A DNA stretch of 64,000 nt from a virus. Below are positions 1,666 through 10,162 of the stretch, piece by piece; the stretch's first letter is position 1, and the number at the start of each line of letters is the position of its first letter. The translations under genes and the position numbers were made by a program. Location of the stretch: the IMG/VR virus record IMGVR_UViG_3300029705_000088; one strand, written 5' to 3'. The notes below the pieces were generated by a model. That model was given only the letters and a program-made list of their open reading frames with translations. It made no database searches and was not told the origin of the DNA.

Positions 1666-2658
1666 ATGGAAGTATTAAATAAACAAGATTATCGTTTAAT
1701 TACGCATTTACTTAAAATGTCTGATAAAGTTCTATTGAAAACTATGATGACATTCCTTCAAAAAGAATATAAACAAGTCATTGCGACAAAAGAATATGTA
1801 TATGCGGTTGGAGATATCCCGGTCGCACTGGTAGCACATTTAGATACGGTTTATAGCACCCAGCCCTCTGATATTTATTATGATTCGCGCAAAGGTGTAT
1901 TGTGGAGTCCGCAGGGACTTGGTGCCGATGATAGGGCTGGTGTATTTGCTATTTTAAAAATTGTTCGTCAAGGCTACAAGCCGCACGTTATTTTTACCAT
2001 GGATGAAGAGGTCGGTGGTAAAGGTGCTACGGCTTTAATTACTGAACATCCAAAGCCTTTTGCGGAAATGAAATATATTATTGAGCTTGACCGCAGAGGA
2101 GTAGTTGATTGCGTATTTTATGATTGCGATAATCAGTTATTTATCCAGTATGTTGAGTCTTTTGGATTTGTAGAAGCTTGGGGAAGTTTTTCTGATATTA
2201 GTGAGATTTGTCCTGCTTGGAAAATTGCTGGTGTAAATCTTTCTATCGGTTATCAAGATGAACATTCTTATAGTGAAACTTTACACATTCATCCAATGTA
2301 TAAAACTATTAATCGTGTTATTAATATGCTTAAAGATATTAATAATGTAATTATCCCATATGATTATATTCCAAATCAGTATTCTTATGGCAAATTAGCA
2401 ACATTGGCTATGGCAACTAAAAATTTTGATTTTGCTGATGAATGGGTAAATTGCGCAAAATGTAAGAAAACATTTCTTGAATATGAATTGTTTCCTATTC
2501 ATACATCAAAAACTGAAACAAAAATGTTTTGTCCTGATTGCGTTTCTAATAATGTGAGATGGTGTGCGGAGTGTGGTGAACCTTTTGAAATTGATGGAAA
2601 AAATCCGAATGAGATTAAATGCTTTATCTGTCGCAAGGAGAAGAAAAAGAATGGCTAA
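1666..2658 (+). CDS. M20/M28-like metallopeptidase-domain protein with C-terminal zinc ribbon
   Basis: HLDTV and GADDRAGV motifs are typical of Zn peptidases. Two CxxC pairs sit at the C-terminus. Consensus promoter at 1600-1640. Confidence 0.45.
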   Translation: MEVLNKQDYRLITHLLKMSDKVLLKTMMTFLQKEYKQVIATKEYVYAVGDIPVALVAHLDTVYSTQPSDIYYDSRKGVLWSPQGLGADDRAGVFAILKIVRQGYKPHVIFTMDEEVGGKGATALITEHPKPFAEMKYIIELDRRGVVDCVFYDCDNQLFIQYVESFGFVEAWGSFSDISEICPAWKIAGVNLSIGYQDEHSYSETLHIHPMYKTINRVINMLKDINNVIIPYDYIPNQYSYGKLATLAMATKNFDFADEWVNCAKCKKTFLEYELFPIHTSKTETKMFCPDCVSNNVRWCAECGEPFEIDGKNPNEIKCFICRKEKKKNG

Positions 2659-3826
2659 TTTTAATATTAATGAAATTAAAGAGCAATTTAAAATTGCTAT
2701 TCGTGTATCGCAAGGGATTGAAAATCCGCAAGTTGATGAACTGTTTGAAATTTGGTTAAATGCTAAAAGAGATTTTATTGAAGTTATGGGTGGTAATTTA
2801 ATTTATCAATATCCAGAAAAGGTTTCATTTACTCTTGAGGCAAGCCAAAAGAAGATGAAATTAGAAGACTTCATTTGTAAATTATATGACTATTATGAAG
2901 TAGAAGATTTGGCAGATTTTGTATATACAATGAAAAAAAGTTTCTTTAGTAATGTTGTATCAGAAGATTATGAAACGCCTACCGGAGAAATTATTACTAA
3001 AGGGACAAAATTAATTAAAGCATTTAAATATTTTATTAATGATAAAGAATTTCTTGCTGAATTACAAGATTTAGCAAGTCAAATTATTCAGTTAGATAAA
3101 GTTGAAGGATATATGTGTTTATCAGTTCATCCTTTAGATTATTTATCTGTAAGTGAAAATACTCATAATTGGCGTTCCTGTCATGCGCTTGATGGTGAGC
3201 ACCGCACTGGCAATTTAAATTATATGGTAGATTATTCTACTATAGTTTGTTATATTAAATCTGAAAAAGAAGAAATTCTTCCTGCGTTTTCGTTCTCTTG
3301 GAATTCTAAGAAATGGCGAACATTACTTTTCTTTTCAAATGATTGGCGTATGATATTTGCGGGAAGGTCTTATCCTTATGGATGTAAACGAGCATTAGAT
3401 TTTATTATTTCTAATTTATTATCTTCTGCTGGATTTTATTCAAATTCTAATCATAGCTGTCATTATTGCGAATGGTGTGATGATAAAATTACAAAATTTA
3501 ATATCAATGGTGATATTTTTGATATAAATCCGCACATTTATGCAGGACAAGGTAAATTAATTGATTTAAATGATTTAATTAAAAATGGTTCTATGACATA
3601 TCATTTTAATGATATTTTAGATTCATCTTATTATGATCCAGTATATTCATATTTAACTTTTGGCTCTGTTCCTATGATAAGTGAAAATACTAGATTTGTG
3701 ATTGGAGCTTCTGTACCTTGTTTGATTTGCGGCAAGAATGCTATTAATCATTCAGATGTTATGGTATGTGATGACTGTATTGGGGATTATTTATATAATT
3801 ATGATTTGAGAGAAAGGAAGAATTAA
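2651..3826 (+). CDS. hypothetical protein
   Basis: ORF with RBS aggaga before the ATG at 2651. An alternative upstream start at 2564 would overlap the previous gene. Confidence 0.45.
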   Translation: MANFNINEIKEQFKIAIRVSQGIENPQVDELFEIWLNAKRDFIEVMGGNLIYQYPEKVSFTLEASQKKMKLEDFICKLYDYYEVEDLADFVYTMKKSFFSNVVSEDYETPTGEIITKGTKLIKAFKYFINDKEFLAELQDLASQIIQLDKVEGYMCLSVHPLDYLSVSENTHNWRSCHALDGEHRTGNLNYMVDYSTIVCYIKSEKEEILPAFSFSWNSKKWRTLLFFSNDWRMIFAGRSYPYGCKRALDFIISNLLSSAGFYSNSNHSCHYCEWCDDKITKFNINGDIFDINPHIYAGQGKLIDLNDLIKNGSMTYHFNDILDSSYYDPVYSYLTFGSVPMISENTRFVIGASVPCLICGKNAINHSDVMVCDDCIGDYLYNYDLRERKN

Positions 3827-4152: not shown

Positions 4153-4212
4153 TTGGAATTTAATGTTTGGAAAGAATATAATTAGGATTAGATTCTTGAA
4201 GCTTTTAATGAT

Positions 4213-4738
4213 ATGAGTTAGAATTGTTAGTTTGATGAATTTATTTAGCAAGATTTTGTAAATAATATTTATCCATAGCTAATTAATTTTTTAGAAAATG
4301 AAAAAGAAATTAATACATGTTTTTTTAATGGTAATTATGAAAAAGTAAATAAAGGTTCTCAAGCAGAAGTATTTATAATAAATAATACTTATGTAATTAA
4401 ATTTATAAATAAACTTAATAAAAATTTTTTAAAATTGAAAAGAGAAAAAATATTAGAGTTAAATTAGAAGCATATTTTTAATTTAGCTCCTTCTTATATA
4501 ATTAATTTATTTAATAGTTATAATTATAGTAATGATTTGATAGAAAGAGCAAAAAGAAAAAATCCAAAAATATCCTATTATAATTTAGATACTATAGTTT
4601 TATAGCCATATTTTGAATCCTTTTTTGATATATTAAAAAAATATTAGCAATTAGTTAGTGGTTCATAGATGCATTTAGATATAACCAATACAGATAATAT
4701 TGGCATTTCATCTAAATCAAAAATTATTTATTTTGATT
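4213..4738 (+). CDS. kinase-like (APH/CotS-type nucleotide-binding N-lobe motif) protein, TAG-recoded
   Basis: Coherent only if TAG is read as sense (about 8 in-frame TAG). Motif NGNYEKVNKGSQAEVFIINNTYVIKF resembles a kinase Gly-loop and VxK. Start is uncertain. Confidence 0.3.
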
Positions 4739-4751
4739 GGTGATTTAAAAT

Positions 4752-5906
4752 ATGTTAAATATTATTATTCCTTGTTTTAATCATCATCAATATTTAGAAA
4801 AATGTTTATAGTCAATTAAATTAAATATTTCAAATTTATCAGAAATTATTGTTTATGTTGTTGATGATTGCTCTAAATATTCAACAGAATATCTTTATTT
4901 AATTGAAAAATATAAGCAATATTTTAATTGTTTATATTTAAAAACAGAAAAAAATTCTGGGCCTGGTAATGCTCGTAATATGGCATTAAAATTATTGAAA
5001 AATAATCAAGATGATTTTACAACCTTTATTGATGATGATGATATAATTATTAATGATATATTGTGTTTGCTTGATAATAAATATGATTTTATTATTACAT
5101 AGAAAAATTCTTCTGATAATATTATAGAATCTTCAAAAGAACCTTGTGATACTTTACAAGGTATTGTTTATAATAATTCTTTTTTAAAAAGATATAATTT
5201 AAATTTTCCTACTTATATGACAGATGGATGTGAAGATTCTGTTTTTAAAACTATAACAATGTTTTTGAGCTCAAATTATATTTGTAAAAATTATTAGTTT
5301 TATCAACGAATTTATAGAACTAATTCAAATTTTACTAGAAGTAATTGTATATGGATGGAATATTTTTATTAGCAAAAACTTATTACTATAAAAGATTAGA
5401 TGATATGGTTAAGCTGTTTATTCTATTATTTAGATGAAATAAAAGATTGTTGTTTAAATAATAATGATATAATTATAAAAATTTATTTTTTATTGTTTGA
5501 TATTTTATTTGATTCAGAGCAAATAATAAAAAATAATTTTAATTTAACTTTTTAGTTTATATTAATTATGATTTATGGAATTTTAAAGTATTACAATTTT
5601 AATTTAAAAATTTCTTCTTCATTATTGCGTAACGATAGAGATATAATAATTTTAGAATTTATTGAATTAATTAAAAATAATTTTAAATTAATAGATAATA
5701 ATATTGTTTTAATTAAAAATAATACTATTAAAAATGATCTAAATAATAGTTTTTATTTAAAAGAATATAAAAATTTATTTAATTCTTTTTTAGAGCTTCC
5801 ATCAACAACACAATATTATGATATTAAATCAATGATTAAATTATTTTCTCATAATTATTATAAAACATAGTTTGAAAATATAAGGGAGATAAATAATGAA
5901 TAAAAT
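4752..5906 (+). CDS. family 2 glycosyltransferase, TAG-recoded
   Basis: N-terminus LNIIIPCFNHHQYLEKCL(TAG)SI..EIIVYVVDDCS...DDDD is the GT2 signature. Several in-frame TAG. The end lies at TAA 5904-5906 if TAG is sense. Confidence 0.5.
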
Positions 5907-6781
5907 TCAATTTCATTTACCCGGATTATTTGAAAAATTTTATTTTTATTAGAATTTTATTCAAATACTAAAAAATAATTCAGAAAAATTTTATTCAGAT
6001 TTTGAAATAAGTTCTATATATGGAGCTCCATTAAATGCGTTATGGAATGGTGGAAGATATTAGTACAATTAGACGGCTATTTCAGAAGATTTTATATTAA
6101 AATTTTTAAAAATTAATAATATTTCTTGTAGTTTAATATTTTCTAATTCTTTATTAGAAGAAAAGCATTTATCAGACACGTATTGTAATTCATTATTGCA
6201 AAAATTTAATAATGAAAATAATAGTATAGTTCTTGCTTCTAATATATTAGAAATTTATATTAGAAAAAATTTTCCCAATTATAAAATTATATCATCTACA
6301 ACTAAATGTTTAAATAATGAAGAAGATTAGTTAAATGAATTAAATAAAAATTATGACATTGTAGTTTTAGATTATAATCATAATAATAATTTTGATTTTT
6401 TAAAATAGCTCCCAAATAAACACAAATGTGAATTTTTAATAAATCCAGTTTGTATCCCAAGATGTCAATATCGCAAATAGCATTATGAAAATATTTCATT
6501 ACAAGTATTAGATCCATCTATTAAACCTTTTAAATGTAAAAATGCTACTTGTCGTATTTTTGAATATACTAAAAATAATCCTTTATTTATAAGTAGAGAT
6601 TTTATAAAAAATATTTATATACCTATGGGATTTAAACATTTTAAAATTGAAGGTAGATTAACATCAGAAGAAAATTTATTAGAAATATTATTATATTATT
6701 TAGTAAAACCTGAATATTAGGATGAAATTCGTCAAAAAATGAATGAATTAAATAATAAAATCTTAATTTGATTTTTATAAA
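5897..6781 (+). CDS. hypothetical Cys-rich protein, TAG-recoded
   Basis: RBS aagggag before the ATG at 5897. Coherent ORF with about 6 in-frame TAG and CxxC motifs. Ends at a TGA inside the next promoter -35 region. Confidence 0.35.
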
Positions 6782-6820
6782 AAAATATGATATAATATAT
6801 ATAGAAAATCAAAAAAGATA
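6778..6820 (+). promoter_or_regulatory. conserved phage promoter
   Basis: TTGATT at 6778, TATAAT at 6801, then ATATATAGAAAAT. Confidence 0.55.
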
Positions 6821-6914
6821 AAAAAATAAAAATTTTTAGGACAAGAGTTTTTAAGAAATTTAAAACTTTTTTGATTAATAATACATTTCTTTTATTTTGA
6901 TTAAAAATTATTAT

Positions 6915-6958
6915 TTGAAAATAATAAAAAAATATGATATAATATTTATAGAAAATAA
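6915..6958 (+). promoter_or_regulatory. conserved phage promoter
   Basis: TTGAAA at 6915, TATAAT at 6938. Drives the permuted tRNA-like locus. Confidence 0.55.
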
Positions 6959-6960
6959 GA

Positions 6961-7101
6961 AAGACGATTACAGCAATTTATTTTAATTATTTTTATGTGC
7001 TGACAACACCCGGGTCGTGGGTTCAAGTCCCACTTTCTATCTTAGCAGATAGAAATAGCTCAGTTGGTAGAGCAGGTAAAAGAAAATATTAAATCGTCTT
7101 G
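6961..7101 (+). ncRNA. tRNA-like element with halves in permuted order (3' T-arm/acceptor segment upstream of 5' acceptor/D-arm segment), enclosed by a 9-bp inverted repeat
   Basis: T-arm gtggg-ttcaagt-cccac plus 3' acceptor tttctat precede the 5' acceptor atagaaa (perfect complement) plus D-arm gctcagttggtagagc. Flanked by aagacgatt (6961) and aatcgtctt (7093). No anticodon stem could be reconstructed. Confidence 0.3.
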
Positions 7102-7125
7102 TAAAATTAAATAAAAAATTTTAAT

Positions 7126-7165
7126 TTGATTTTTATAAAAAAATATGATATAATATATATGTAAA
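7126..7165 (+). promoter_or_regulatory. conserved phage promoter
   Basis: TTGATT at 7126, TATAAT at 7149. Precedes the structured RNA region. Confidence 0.55.
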
Positions 7166-7184
7166 AAATAATAATAAATAAGGT

Positions 7185-7395
7185 GCTACGAAGCCATTAA
7201 GTGAACCAATACAGCTTGTTATTAGGGATGCGGGAGGGACTTAATGAAGGACCATATGGTTGAAAGCCACAGCAGCTGTAGTAAATGGAGTGAGATGAAC
7301 AGCCTTATTATAAAACGCTAAAAGAGGAAGTTAAAGTAAAGGATAGTGTACATAAAGCCTTGCTAAAAGAGAGTGCGTAATCTCTCAGAACAAGA
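7185..7395 (+). ncRNA. candidate RNase P RNA-like (type B, Firmicutes-like) structured RNA
   Basis: gaaagccacagcagctgtagtaaatggagtgagatgaacagcc resembles the B. subtilis RNase P RNA P10.1-P12 region GAAAGTGCCACAGTGACG...GAAATGGTGAGAGTGGAACGCGG. cagaacaag resembles the P4 3' strand ACAGAA. An acagcttgtt/aacaaga pairing could close the structure. About 210 nt, shorter than the canonical 350-400 nt, so it may be partial or may extend into 7396-7480. Confidence 0.3.
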
Positions 7396-7480
7396 TTTTG
7401 TCCGTTTGCTTGTTCATGTATGCCGTATTGGTGTAATGGTAGCACTTGCAGGCCCGCTGAATGCGTTGCGGGAGGAGGCA
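7396..7480 (+). ncRNA. tRNA-like structure with non-canonical anticodon region (10-nt loop)
   Basis: Acceptor gccgtat/attcggc + CCA, D-arm gtgt-aatggta-gcac, T-arm ggcag-ttcaatt-ctgtc. The cccgc/gcggg stem encloses 10 nt. Confidence 0.3.
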
Positions 7481-7895
7481 GTTCAATTCTGTCATTCGGC
7501 ACCAATCTCCCTTAGCGAAGGAGTAAGATAGACTTAGTGCTATCAAAAAAGCTAGACAGTTGGAAAGACAACCGACGGTTCCGGTGCGTAGTGGTTAGAA
7601 GCATCAACTGGGATATGATGGTAAGCCCATACAACAATAACCATCACCAACGCCCTCAAGCGTGTGTAGCAGTTTCGCTACAAGGTCCTACTCCGGACGT
7701 GGCGTTCCATAAGGAAGGCAGGAAATGGGTTTTGTCAGGGGTCCCATCACTATCAGAAAACTGTCTAATTGGAAAAACAAAAATTCCAGTAATCAACAAA
7801 TAAGTGGTTAGCCGACCTTAAGGCTAGTGTGATATATGCCAACAGTGGAGAGGTTAAGCACACGGGTGTGATATCCATCTTTCTCCACCATTTAA

Positions 7896-7972
7896 GCAGG
7901 TGTAGCCGAATTGGCATAGGCGTTAGTCTTAGGAACTAAAATGTAAGGGTTCAAGTCCCTTCACCTGTACCA
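7896..7972 (+). tRNA. tRNA, type I, anticodon TAG (would read CUA/CUG); isotype uncertain
   Basis: Acceptor gcaggtg/cacctgt, anticodon stem ttagt/actaa with loop cttagga, T-arm aaggg-ttcaagt-ccctt, encoded CCA. The short variable loop is atypical for bacterial tRNA-Leu. Confidence 0.5.
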
Positions 7973-7983
7973 AAAATCTTAAT

Positions 7984-8025
7984 TTGATTTTTTATAAAAA
8001 ATATGTTATAATATTTATAGAAAAT
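7984..8025 (+). promoter_or_regulatory. conserved phage promoter
   Basis: TTGATT at 7984, TATAAT at 8007. Confidence 0.55.
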
Positions 8026-8043
8026 TAAGAAAGGAAATAAAAT

Positions 8044-8328
8044 ATGACAAATAATACTAATGTAATTGTTGGTGGAATTTCTTTAGAAAAATGGAGAAAT
8101 GCTTTTATTAAAGTATTGGAAAGAACAATTAATAGTGATGATTTTAGTGATATTTTATTTTTTGAACTTTATCCTAATATAGAAGAAGAAATTCAAGAGA
8201 TTGAAGCGCAAGCAGAAGATGAATGTGCGGCAGAAGAAGCTGTTGATGAAATCTATGCTAGTAAATATGATTATGCGTATAAAGCTTTTAAATTAATTTT
8301 TGGTATTACTTCTATTGAACGTGAATAA
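8044..8328 (+). CDS. hypothetical acidic protein
   Basis: ORF downstream of consensus promoter 7984-8025. Confidence 0.45.
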   Translation: MTNNTNVIVGGISLEKWRNAFIKVLERTINSDDFSDILFFELYPNIEEEIQEIEAQAEDECAAEEAVDEIYASKYDYAYKAFKLIFGITSIERE

Positions 8329-8799
8329 AAAAAAATTTAATGACAGCGGATGGAGTCATTAAACTGCCGTGCTGGGCATTACAGGGTAGCGTCCGAAGAG
8401 AAAGAATTACCCTTTTCGCAGTTGTGAATCTTGCGAAACATAAATTAAAATCAATACTTTACAGCAGGATGGTAATAGCCAAATAGTTTAGAGAAAACTA
8501 AGTTGATTTTTACCCCAGACGTTTTGTGGCTGTTTAGGGCTGGGTGTGCCGGATAAAAGCCGATTGCGCGCAAGGGTTTTGCAAGGTTTCCCTCTCTGCG
8601 GATGAAAAACCAAGATAATATTTCTTATTAGAGTAGTTTTACACTCTTAATTTAATTAGTGCTTGTTGATGCTGCAAGTAAACGGGGAAGGTTTAAGCGA
8701 GCTTACGGCTAATTAAATAAAAAAGAAGTAAGTTATCTCCATGTAAAGAAGAAAATCTCGTGTTTGATTCTGAAGCAATGTACTTATAAAGTTCTTTAT

Positions 8800-8840
8800 T
8801 TGATTTTTTAAAAAATATATGTTATAATATATATAGAAAA
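8800..8840 (+). promoter_or_regulatory. conserved phage promoter
   Basis: TTGATT at 8800, TATAAT at 8823. Confidence 0.55.
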
Positions 8841-9411
8841 TTAAAAAAGATTATTTCATATGCTGTGACTGGTGTAATTGGTTAGCATCCTCTCAAGGAA
8901 CAGAGTGGTATAGGTTCAAATCCTGTGTCCAGCATTTAAATTAAAATCCTTAAAATTTATCACGGTTAAGGTTGGGTTAAGTTGTATAAGAGTTATAGAA
9001 TTTAATTTATTAAAAGTTATAATTAAATTAAACCATCAACCCCCAGAAATGTGATAGACTGATTTTTTTAAGTATCTTTTACAAAGAGGGAAAAAAATAC
9101 TTCCGTTTTTTGGCAATTTTTAACGGTGACAAAAATTGTATGGTTTCTGAATAAACCAAGAAAATTCAGCATCTGAGGACATGGATGTGGCGGCACCAAG
9201 CTCAAAGGAAGGGCGAATTCACTGGAACTTGCTTAAAATTTTTGTTACTTTTGATAAGAGCGTGATTATATAAAAGTAATACGTGATGCCGCGTGGGTTA
9301 GCGCTGACCCAAAGTGCGATTTATTAAATATGTTCGCAAACTTTCATATTTAATTACTATATATAAGTTGCGGTTTGTTGCCCTTTGTTTTCCTAAAAAT
9401 CAAACGCTCAT

Positions 9412-9496
9412 GCTCAGATGATGGAATCGGCAGACATGGGAGTCTCAAAAACTCCTGCCGCAAGGCGTATGGGTTCAAGTCCCATTCCGAGCACCA
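9412..9496 (+). tRNA. tRNA-Leu (anticodon CAA), type II
   Basis: D-arm aatcggcagac is Leu-like. Anticodon stem ggagt/actcc with loop ctcaaaa. Long variable arm. T-arm atggg-ttcaagt-cccat. CCA encoded. Confidence 0.6.
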
Positions 9497-9616
9497 TAAA
9501 AACGCATACAGCAATATAAAATGATTTGTCAAGCGGTTAAGACATCACTCAGCAACAGTGAGAACATGGGTTCAAGTCCCATATCAAAAAAATGTGTTTT
9601 GTAATTTATTGAAAAG

Positions 9617-9862
9617 GTGAAATTTATGAATGAATTTTTCGCTCTTGGTAAAATAAGCTGGTATAATTCTATTGATAATGAAGAGAATGTAGATTACATT
9701 GTTCTTACAAATATTAAAGATTTTAAAGACGCTATGTTCCAAATTGAAGAATATTATGGAAATGATTTGGTTAAAGCAGAGATTCAGCTTTTTGAAGGAC
9801 CATTTGTTCATGTCAAAGAAGAATGGTTTAATATGATTGAAAAAGATGAACATTTAATTTAA
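9617..9862 (+). CDS. hypothetical protein
   Basis: ORF between tRNA genes, with an RBS. Confidence 0.4.
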   Translation: MKFMNEFFALGKISWYNSIDNEENVDYIVLTNIKDFKDAMFQIEEYYGNDLVKAEIQLFEGPFVHVKEEWFNMIEKDEHLI

Positions 9863-9872
9863 AAATCTTAAT

Positions 9873-9915
9873 TTGATTTTTTATAAAAAATATGATATAA
9901 TATATATAGAAAATC
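9873..9915 (+). promoter_or_regulatory. conserved phage promoter
   Basis: TTGATT at 9873, TATAAT at 9896. Precedes tRNA-Lys. Confidence 0.55.
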
Positions 9916-9927
9916 AAAAAGAAATAA

Positions 9928-10002
9928 TTCAATGTAACTCAGTGGAAGAGTATCAAACTTTTAATTTGAGAGTCATGGGTTCAAATCCCATCATTGAAAC
10001 CA
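9928..10002 (+). tRNA. tRNA-Lys (anticodon TTT)
   Basis: Perfect acceptor ttcaatg/cattgaa, D-stem actc/gagt, anticodon stem tcaaa/tttga with loop cttttaa, CCA encoded. Confidence 0.7.
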
Positions 10003-10017
10003 ATTAAAAAATTTTTC

Positions 10018-10060
10018 TTGACATTTTTAAAAAAATATGTTATAATATTTATAGAAAATA
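10018..10060 (+). promoter_or_regulatory. conserved phage promoter
   Basis: TTGACA at 10018, TATAAT at 10041. Confidence 0.55.
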
Positions 10061-10162
10061 AGAAAAGAGGAAAATAAAATATGTTTAATGATTTTTCTGT
10101 CCAGATTCAGTCCGATGAAATGTATGAAGTTCTTATTGAAATGTGGAAACGAGAGGTTGAAA

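Follow-up and report, generated by a model that had tools for sequence, protein, structure and literature searches.

The stretch of DNA analysed here, 64,000 nucleotides of the IMG/VR virus record IMGVR_UViG_3300029705_000088 (hereafter the window), carries between positions 7160 and 7895 an island of genuinely non-coding, GC-richer sequence that lies behind a sigma-70-type promoter and is kept in related phage contigs. An earlier note, made from the letters alone, had suggested that this island included a mini RNase P RNA. We find that it is made up of conserved RNA modules that are independent of one another. Covariation supports the structures of three of them (motifs 1 to 3), and none of the modules is an RNase P RNA. 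The alternative offered in the same note, a set of unrelated small RNAs, was essentially right. Other phages have the modules too, variously combined and for the most part within tRNA arrays whose strand they share; the family of phage RNAs to which motif 1 belongs is widespread and has no entry in Rfam 15. Probably, the island is read as a promoter-driven precursor carrying independent structured small RNAs that would be released at tRNA and tRNA-like elements. The island and its borders consist of the following features.

7126-7154, plus strand: sigma-70-type promoter of the island; the cassette is also kept in relatives
7177-7309, plus strand: motif 1; covariation on 67 sequences, 96.4 bits with the covariance model R1 of this family built in the present analysis, no Rfam match
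7177-7183/7303-7309, plus strand: terminal stem P1 of motif 1 (...GG/CC...)
7185-7189/7278-7282 plus 7192-7194/7275-7277, plus strand: stem P2 of motif 1
7195-7274, plus strand: variable domain of motif 1, containing GAAAGCCACAG
7283-7302, plus strand: conserved loop of motif 1, AAAUGGAGUGAGAUGAACAG
7310-7416, plus strand: conserved 3' part of module A, with hairpins 7335-7342/7361-7367, 7372-7376/7385-7389 (GAGAG/CUCUC) and 7389-7395/7410-7416 (GAACAAG/CUUGUUC)
7417-7549, plus strand: insertion private to this phage
7422-7504, plus strand: tRNA-like element with acceptor, D and T arms and an encoded CCA
7557-7649, plus strand: motif 2, two hairpins followed by an H-type pseudoknot, with an ACCA end at 7646-7649
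7609-7612/7626-7629 and 7617-7622/7640-7645, plus strand: pseudoknot stems S1 (UGGG/CCCA) and S2 (GAUGGU/ACCAUC) of motif 2
7650-7826, plus strand: module C1, small hairpins and a variable hairpin at 7781-7800; it begins where the CCA of a tRNA-like element ends in the relative L023
7827-7888, plus strand: motif 3, a pre-tRNA leader pseudoknot ending 7 nt before tRNA-Leu
7827-7831/7859-7863, 7845-7851/7882-7888 and 7864-7868/7876-7880, plus strand: motif 3 stems S1 (GUGUG/CACAC), S2 (GUGGAGA/UCUCCAC) and P3
7896-7972, plus strand: tRNA-Leu(UAG) with encoded CCA, 64.7 bits; 3' boundary of the island

The basic description of the island in the earlier note stands. The GC content is 40-48% over 7200-8000, as against 13-27% in the flanks, and the promoter upstream consists of a -35 box TTGATT (7126-7131), a 17-nt spacer and a TG-extended -10 box TATAAT (7149-7154). 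Open reading frames (ORFs) at 7308-7505 on the minus strand and 7537-7803 on the plus strand exist only mechanically, and they are taken to be non-coding because relatives show a 133-nt indel, not a multiple of three, together with compensatory changes. A coding reading with TAG as a sense codon was ruled out by GC content, indels and compensatory changes, and 7381-7803 gave no sign of coding, this reading included. The tRNA-Leu(UAG) that closes the island is a sound tRNA, called by ARAGORN at default settings and matched by the tRNA model RF00005. Searches with blastn against GenBank phages, using 7100-8000 and 8329-9415, yielded no match.

Diverged relatives of this region (L011, L023 and L025-L029) were obtained via homologues of an AAA protein encoded at 11617-12762 and of a 94-aa ORF at 8044-8328. 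Ten contigs with an identical 94-aa ORF proved identical or near-identical in DNA sequence (at most two substitutions) and were uninformative for covariation, and no relatives of the 420-aa protein encoded at 2564-3826 were found in IMG/VR. In L025, L026, L027 and L029, the equivalent of window 6955-7416 (78% identity) is joined straight to that of 7550-8610 (89%), so that 7417-7549 constitutes an insertion private to this phage. Moreover, L023 retains only 7647-7895, directly preceded by a different tRNA-like element, which has a 13-nt loop and ends in CCA. Since these relatives lack the insertion, and L023 keeps so limited a part, the island is a module mosaic and not one RNA. Motifs 1, 2 and 3 have each been found alone in other viral contigs. 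A single large RNA of the size of ROOL was considered and rejected, given that the modules occur independently and that there is no ROOL match.

Evidence for structure comes from covariation. The earlier note had taken the many complementarities in the island as a sign of structure, and this did not hold: the folding energy of the whole island is close to that of shuffled sequence (z = -0.85). Thermodynamic stability, not being significant, was dropped as evidence, and we rely on covariation rather than on a count of complementarities because the folding energies are unremarkable. The long-range helix singled out in the note, GUGGAGA/UCUCCAC at 7845-7851/7882-7888, does covary and forms stem S2 of motif 3.

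Motif 1 was followed in two ways. The exact 21-mer AATGGAGTGAGATGAACAGCC (7285-7304 plus one base) is present in 20 IMG/VR contigs and in five contigs binned into metagenome-assembled genomes (MAGs), and the degenerate pattern GGTGCYRCGAAG-N50-80-GTRGTAAATGG retrieved 67 viral contigs of 14-220 kb. Pooled, these matches amount to 67 distinct motif 1 sequences on about 80 large uncultivated-phage contigs of gut or rumen type. They have a common architecture consisting of P1, a P2 stem built from GCYAC/GURGU, a GA bulge and AGC/GCW, a hypervariable inner domain, and an unpaired loop of about 20 nt (AAAUGGARUKNRAURAACAG) closing onto the CC of P1, and the family 5' motif reads GGUGCYACGAAG. Over the 67 sequences, 89.9% of the cells in the stems are paired, a share that falls to 20-55% once the partners are shifted by 1-3 columns. 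The P1 pairs show 4-5 pair types each, and one P2 pair is U-A in 41 sequences and C-G in 26 with zero mismatches, where the search pattern permitted any Y/R combination. Two positions of the loop also covary, being G..G in 45 sequences and A..A in 15.

The R1 model matches one copy in the window (7170-7318, E=6e-23), which belongs to the family. It detects three copies in L107 (1184-2832) and three in L112, where a fourth copy with a variant 5' motif was read from the sequence. The four L112 copies are tandem paralogues with differing inner domains (4674-5335), located between protein genes with no adjacent tRNA. Among the 67 copies, 57 share their locus with tRNAs, always on the same strand. 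A tRNA starts within about 25 nt after P1 in some 14 copies and ends within about 8 nt before P1 in five, and a promoter-like site precedes 18. No Rfam family overlaps any motif 1 copy, and the loop-region consensus finds no match among GenBank phages by blastn even at E<=1. The loop sequence was not encountered in a literature search, a comparison that did not extend to the catalogue of 10,006 viral RNA candidates (PMC10690425). A MAG contig (L059, CAAGJD010000133.1) and an IMG/VR contig (L047, IMGVR_UViG_3300045988_139151) are both 123,552 bp long and bear the same motif 1 copy. Because a phage contig has apparently been binned into an Acholeplasmatales MAG in the case of L059, MAG titles are unreliable as host calls for motif 1.

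In motif 3, 100% of the cells are paired and 9 of the 17 pairs are compensatory. Copies added by the motif 3 model R2 and a final pattern scan are located in L020, L086 (two), L089 and seven more viral contigs, L122-L128. A tRNA gene or a tRNA-like start lies 5-9 nt after S2 in every copy for which downstream sequence was read. ARAGORN makes no call after motif 3 in L123, but the sequence there is identical to the start of tRNA-Asn in L122. The tRNAs that follow have six identities (Leu-UAG, Thr, Met, Ala, Asn and Trp), and in L020, L122 and L127 motif 3 begins 3-4 nt after the preceding tRNA. The P3 loop of the window copy, UGAUAUC (7869-7875), is a U followed by the palindrome GAUAUC, which is shared with L023 and L011; the corresponding palindromes are GACGUC in the L025 type, UCUAGA in L086, L089, L020 and L122-L127, and CUAG in L128. 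Kissing (loop-loop) pairing between motif 3 copies is suggested because three different hexamers stay palindromic at one aligned position.

A comparable feature was noticed in a short subfamily of motif 1 (L039 4815-4929, L051 13031-13145, L053 3863-3976, L037 13133-13246 and L083 293-431), whose single inner hairpin has a palindromic hexamer loop, either CCAUGG, CAGCUG, UCGCGA, GAGCUC or UGCGCA. These loops suggest kissing-loop dimerisation, as for motif 3. Over all motif 1 copies the enrichment of palindromic loops is weak (5 observed, 2.2 expected) and it holds for the short subfamily only; the window copy has a plain AUAU tetraloop hairpin and not a palindromic hexamer.

Motif 2 has homologues in the viral contigs L034, L035 and L036, one of which also bears motif 1 and GOLLD. 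Four pairs are compensatory, two in each pseudoknot stem, and 98.8% of the cells are paired. With respect to the L025-type relatives motif 2 is near invariant, with 1 substitution in 100 nt, and its ACCA end coincides with the CCA end of the tRNA-like element in L023. For the remaining segments the comparison is restricted to the relatives. Hairpin 7335-7342/7361-7367 in the 3' part of module A shows one compensatory pair (A-U to G-C) and one change from U.G to C-G, and the covarying hairpin of C1 at 7781-7800 is closed by UUCC/GGAA in the window, UCCC/GGGA in L025 and GUUCU/AGAGC in L023. One metagenome scan with a 19-mer from module C gave four chance matches (L030-L033), two module C patterns found no match in IMG/VR, and profile searches with module A-3', C1 and the two further non-coding islands described below detected no homologue in any of the other loci. 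A viral match to GGTTGAAAGCCACAGCAGC, in L022, was discarded as chance, as it lies in a GC-rich coding region.

Of the two tRNA-like elements reported earlier, both exist, although the one with the 10-nt loop sits at 7422-7504 and not at 7396-7480. In this element a 5-bp stem with the 10-nt loop replaces the anticodon arm. ARAGORN calls it only in relaxed mode (80% threshold) with a forced 9-nt 'intron', the tRNA model gives no match to it even at E<=10, and it is not classed here as a tRNA. A second kind of CCA-ended tRNA-like element, at L023 947-1025, parallels it, the anticodon loop being replaced by one of 13 nt.

The question of RNase P was addressed with the covariance models of Rfam 15, run at curated thresholds over the whole window, at E<=10 over 6800-9700, and at E<=10 with lax filters over 7150-7900. 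At curated thresholds only tRNAs were found in the whole window, and none of the RNase P models (RNaseP_bact_a, RNaseP_bact_b, archaeal, nuclear and type T) gave a match. RNase P models of any type and the 6S, ROOL, GOLLD, group I intron and ribozyme models matched nothing at E<=10 in either 6800-9700 or 7150-7900, and the same is true of the tmRNA and Y-RNA models in 7150-7900. The sole non-tRNA signal worth counting at E<=10 in 6800-9700 was a sub-threshold YrlA match at 6990-7097, upstream of the island. A tmRNA was also rejected: the tmRNA mode of ARAGORN was empty even at a relaxed threshold and the only Rfam tmRNA match was an 18-nt T-arm at 7016-7033.

The local resemblances on which the RNase P proposal had been built dissolve on comparison with relatives. 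Within the string likened to RNase P RNA (7262-7304), GAAAGCCACAG (7262-7272) falls in the variable domain of motif 1; the L025-type relatives have an unrelated, shorter sequence in its place, and in most of the 67 family members, too, this hypervariable position holds unrelated sequence. The candidate for the 3' strand of P4, CAGAACAAG, is one half of the local 7-bp hairpin GAACAAG/CUUGUUC (7389-7395/7410-7416); no CR-I-like P4 partner is present for it, and the models that encode P4 match nothing in 7150-7900. We regard it as extremely improbable that the phage matures its tRNAs with a minimal RNase P RNA of its own, encoded either by the island as a whole or by motif 1. The heavy tRNA load of the phage and the tRNA-maturation context would suit such an RNA, and the motif 1 loop AAAUGGAGUGAGAUGAAC bears what we take to be a local, ungapped resemblance to a stretch of the B. 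subtilis type-B S-domain, a stretch that presumably forms the P10.1 hairpin. The loop has no P10.1-type partner strand, however, and equivalents of P4, CR-I and CR-V, as well as other catalytic-core elements, are lacking. In addition, motif 1 is only about 135 nt long and occurs in multiple copies and as tandem paralogues with differing inner domains, unlike a catalytic housekeeping RNA. The analysis therefore removes a false lead, since a phage RNase P RNA would otherwise be a striking claim.

In the reading that we favour, the promoter at 7126-7154 would give rise to a single precursor transcript extending to tRNA-Leu(UAG) and containing, in order, motif 1, 7310-7416, the tRNA-like element 7422-7504, motif 2, C1 at 7650-7826 and motif 3. 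The tRNA and the tRNA-like elements would serve as punctuation: cleavage by RNase P at the 5' ends of tRNAs, and processing of 3' ends at the CCA, would set the modules free as separate stable RNAs, each with a terminal stem (P1 in motif 1) closing off its ends. Motif 1 is envisaged to act in trans. Its invariant 20-nt asymmetric loop would dock a shared partner, probably from the machinery of translation or tRNA processing, and its hypervariable distal domain would diversify from one paralogue to another. For motif 3 the target would be the following tRNA, in cis, with an effect either on 5' maturation or on the stability of the precursor, and motif 3 may dimerise via its palindromic loop.

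Several points weigh against this reading. The ends of the transcript, its processing and the stability of its products are all predicted from the sequence, and the folding energies of six sub-segments (z -1.0 to +0.1 versus shuffled sequence) lend it no help. The patterns used to collect motif 1 prescribe the 5' motif, and the 3' motif in part, so that conservation at these positions arises partly by construction. Motif 2 rests on 4 independent lineages and motif 3 on about 6, and 7310-7416, C1 and the two further islands are known from close relatives only. The tRNA-free motif 1 array in L112 implies that punctuation by tRNAs is not obligatory. Finally, no protein family occurs consistently near motif 1, the best being present at 11 of 87 loci, so that no partner can be named.

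A rival reading would be that the tRNA-array transcript is processed by motif 1, motif 3 or both as new self-cleaving ribozymes, with motif 3 freeing the 5' end of the next tRNA. In both motifs, unpaired nucleotides that are strictly conserved are framed by small covarying stems, motif 1 forms tandem arrays, and motif 3 stands 5-9 nt from position +1 of the tRNA in each copy with a downstream read. Moreover, tRNA-flanking ribozymes are already known in recoded gut phages, where theta ribozymes resembling that of hepatitis delta virus (HDV) occur at tRNA 3' ends and 4.5% of the associated tRNAs encode CCA (PMC10879173). Motif 3 resembles the theta ribozymes in being a small pseudoknotted RNA, with interleaved helices, that abuts tRNA genes; it differs from them in keeping a constant distance to the 5' end of a downstream tRNA, and the tRNAs here encode CCA. 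An HDV-like or theta ribozyme was rejected for motif 3 as only 5-6 nt separate the 5' strand of S2 from the 3' strand of S1, leaving no room for P3/L3; the equivalent of J4/2 has 0-1 nt and lacks the catalytic C, no HDV-type Rfam model matches, and the element is positioned 5' of the tRNA. No Rfam ribozyme family matches either motif, RNase P alone suffices for the tRNA 5' ends, and we know of no small ribozyme that cuts several nucleotides downstream of its own fold. Self-cleavage by these motifs thus appears quite unlikely to us.

The modules could also be leader or spacer elements working in cis only, which insulate the tRNAs, shield the precursor or tune RNase P and have no function once released. 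This would agree with motifs 1 and 3 often filling inter-tRNA spacers exactly or sitting directly upstream of a tRNA, and is less easily reconciled with four tandem motif 1 copies between protein genes without a tRNA beside them, or with motif 2 and C1, neither of which is beside a true tRNA. Furthermore, the unpaired 20-nt loop of motif 1 is conserved in sequence and its G..G/A..A covariation argues for a specific binding surface and not a passive spacer. We judge a purely cis-acting role to be rather unlikely, and retain the precursor with released small RNAs as the probable explanation.

The earlier note had further considered that the RNAs might be Y-RNA-like partners of a TROVE-like protein. 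A DUF2828/DUF7788 protein of this kind is indeed encoded in the window, at 21804-23321, and a candidate RNA partner lies directly upstream of the island.

6990-7097, plus strand: YrlA-like element, with its own promoter at 6915-6943

The YrlA model RF02553 matches this element with 34.5 bits (E=4.4e-5), below the curated threshold of 69, and its homologue in L025 with 45 bits (E=3e-8). It appears to have the permuted module of YrlA, with T-arm, acceptor-like hairpin and D-arm; the first two of these show compensatory changes when the window is compared with L025. Two tandem YrlA-like units are present in L027. The YrlA-like element and the TROVE-like protein may form a phage Ro/Y-RNA pair. For the island itself, the proposal does not extend beyond this neighbour: nothing in 7150-7900 matches the YrlA model or resembles YrlA, and motif 1 has no tRNA-like module. 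The presence of DUF2828-like ORFs at 8 of 87 motif 1 loci, which could be cited in its favour, is a weak co-occurrence, and the island RNAs are very unlikely to be partners of the TROVE-like protein.

Among RNAs from phage tRNA arrays, the closest in setting are ROOL and GOLLD, which form homo-oligomers, may be transcribed together with tRNAs and lie "often near tRNA islands" (PMC5737381, PMC12286853). Like the modules of the island, they are structured phage or prophage non-coding RNAs beside or inside tRNA arrays; a GOLLD linker can carry tRNAs, just as the island carries a tRNA-like insertion, and oligomerisation, established for both, is suggested for motif 3 by its palindromic loops. They differ in showing no sequence or model similarity to the island and in being one ornate RNA of 580-800 nt, whereas the island units are independent and of about 60-135 nt. 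Both families are absent from the window (RF03087 and RF02032), and the same search detects ROOL in the related arrays of L020 (6043-6637, 347 bits) and L056 (3725-4348, 274 bits) and GOLLD in L045 (5016-5531, 155 bits), on a contig that also bears motifs 1 and 2 (L045, L034). Skipping-rope RNA occurs in L056 (7533-7615, 67 bits), with a motif 1 copy some 300 nt further downstream. In the tRNA cluster of phage T4, small stable RNAs (species 1 and 2) are co-transcribed with tRNAs and cut from the same precursor. The island RNAs are likened to these by description only, T4 being unrelated to the present TAG-recoded, AT-rich phage.

Two further stretches downstream of the island are conserved and non-coding.

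8340-8610, plus strand: island 2 core, 95-97% identity in 7 relatives; no Rfam match
8861-9411, plus strand: island 3, behind a promoter at 8800-8828 and extending to tRNA-Leu(CAA) at 9412-9496
8861-8935, plus strand: tRNA-like gene whose acceptor stem is bulged and whose anticodon loop has 8 nt, conserved in all relatives behind its own promoter

The stretch 8330-8800 had been described as non-coding and promoter-driven. It is non-coding and has a conserved core, but in the window it has no promoter of its own and directly follows the stop codon of the 94-aa ORF; in the relative L011 a promoter is inserted between this ORF and island 2. The core remains 95-97% identical in L023, where the neighbouring ORF region has 84% identity at the DNA level and the ORF product 85% at the protein level, and no covarying pair was seen in it, the sequences being too similar. 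A 48-aa ORF within island 2 (8340-8486) is broken by TGA in L025, and 8611-8795 is specific to this window. In island 3, blocks at about 8936-8990 and 9272-9411 are present in all relatives and the middle shows lineage-specific indels; its only Rfam match is a weak tRNA (21.5 bits, 8867-8929). ARAGORN reads a 4-base anticodon, agga, in the tRNA-like gene 8861-8935, which could be a frameshift-type or a non-decoding tRNA. Directly after tRNA-Leu(CAA), 9522-9586 scores 36 bits with the tRNA model over model positions 4-67 only and has no ARAGORN call; it may be a truncated-acceptor or tRNA-like element.

The window represents an AT-rich, phage-like genome with coding regions of 13-30% GC, in which 23 co-oriented tRNA genes form an array from 7896 to 20274. 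This array includes the following.

19204-19298, within the tRNA array: suppressor tRNA(CUA)

The phage is TAG-recoded, since three ORFs just upstream of the island, 4153-4743, 4749-5903 (a GT2 glycosyltransferase) and 5893-6771, are open only with TAG as sense, and standard ORF lists break genes of this phage. The promoter cassette of the island, composed of TTGATT, a 17-nt spacer and TG-extended TATAAT, is repeated at 6768, 6915, 7126, 7984, 8800 and 9873. Two protein genes within the tRNA array were also noted. A small ORF at 10163-10312 has a weak Pfam match to ArfA (alternative ribosome-rescue factor A) and is kept in the relatives L001, L011, L015 and L029. The AAA protein encoded at 11617-12762 is an nSTAND3-type ATPase from a very large family (3835 matches at E<=1e-10), and its homologues, where contigs were examined, are likewise located in phage tRNA arrays.

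Phage tRNA arrays are known as sites of GOLLD, ROOL and theta ribozymes, and to these the window adds three small covariation-supported motifs without an Rfam match. A bolder proposal, which we consider unlikely, is that motif 3 works in cis as an RNA device of a new kind, which might be a ribozyme and would mature or gate the next tRNA at its 5' end, and that motif 1 represents a new trans-acting class, possibly catalytic or self-assembling, with a 20-nt active loop. If this were true, phage tRNA arrays would hide a toolkit of RNA-only processing and takeover elements, and in motif 3 the theta ribozymes would have their counterpart for tRNA 5' ends. The near-constant distance of motif 3 from the tRNA 5' end, together with a palindromic loop that changes compensatorily, provides concrete experimental handles, and these features bear on the role of non-tRNA RNAs in phage tRNA islands.

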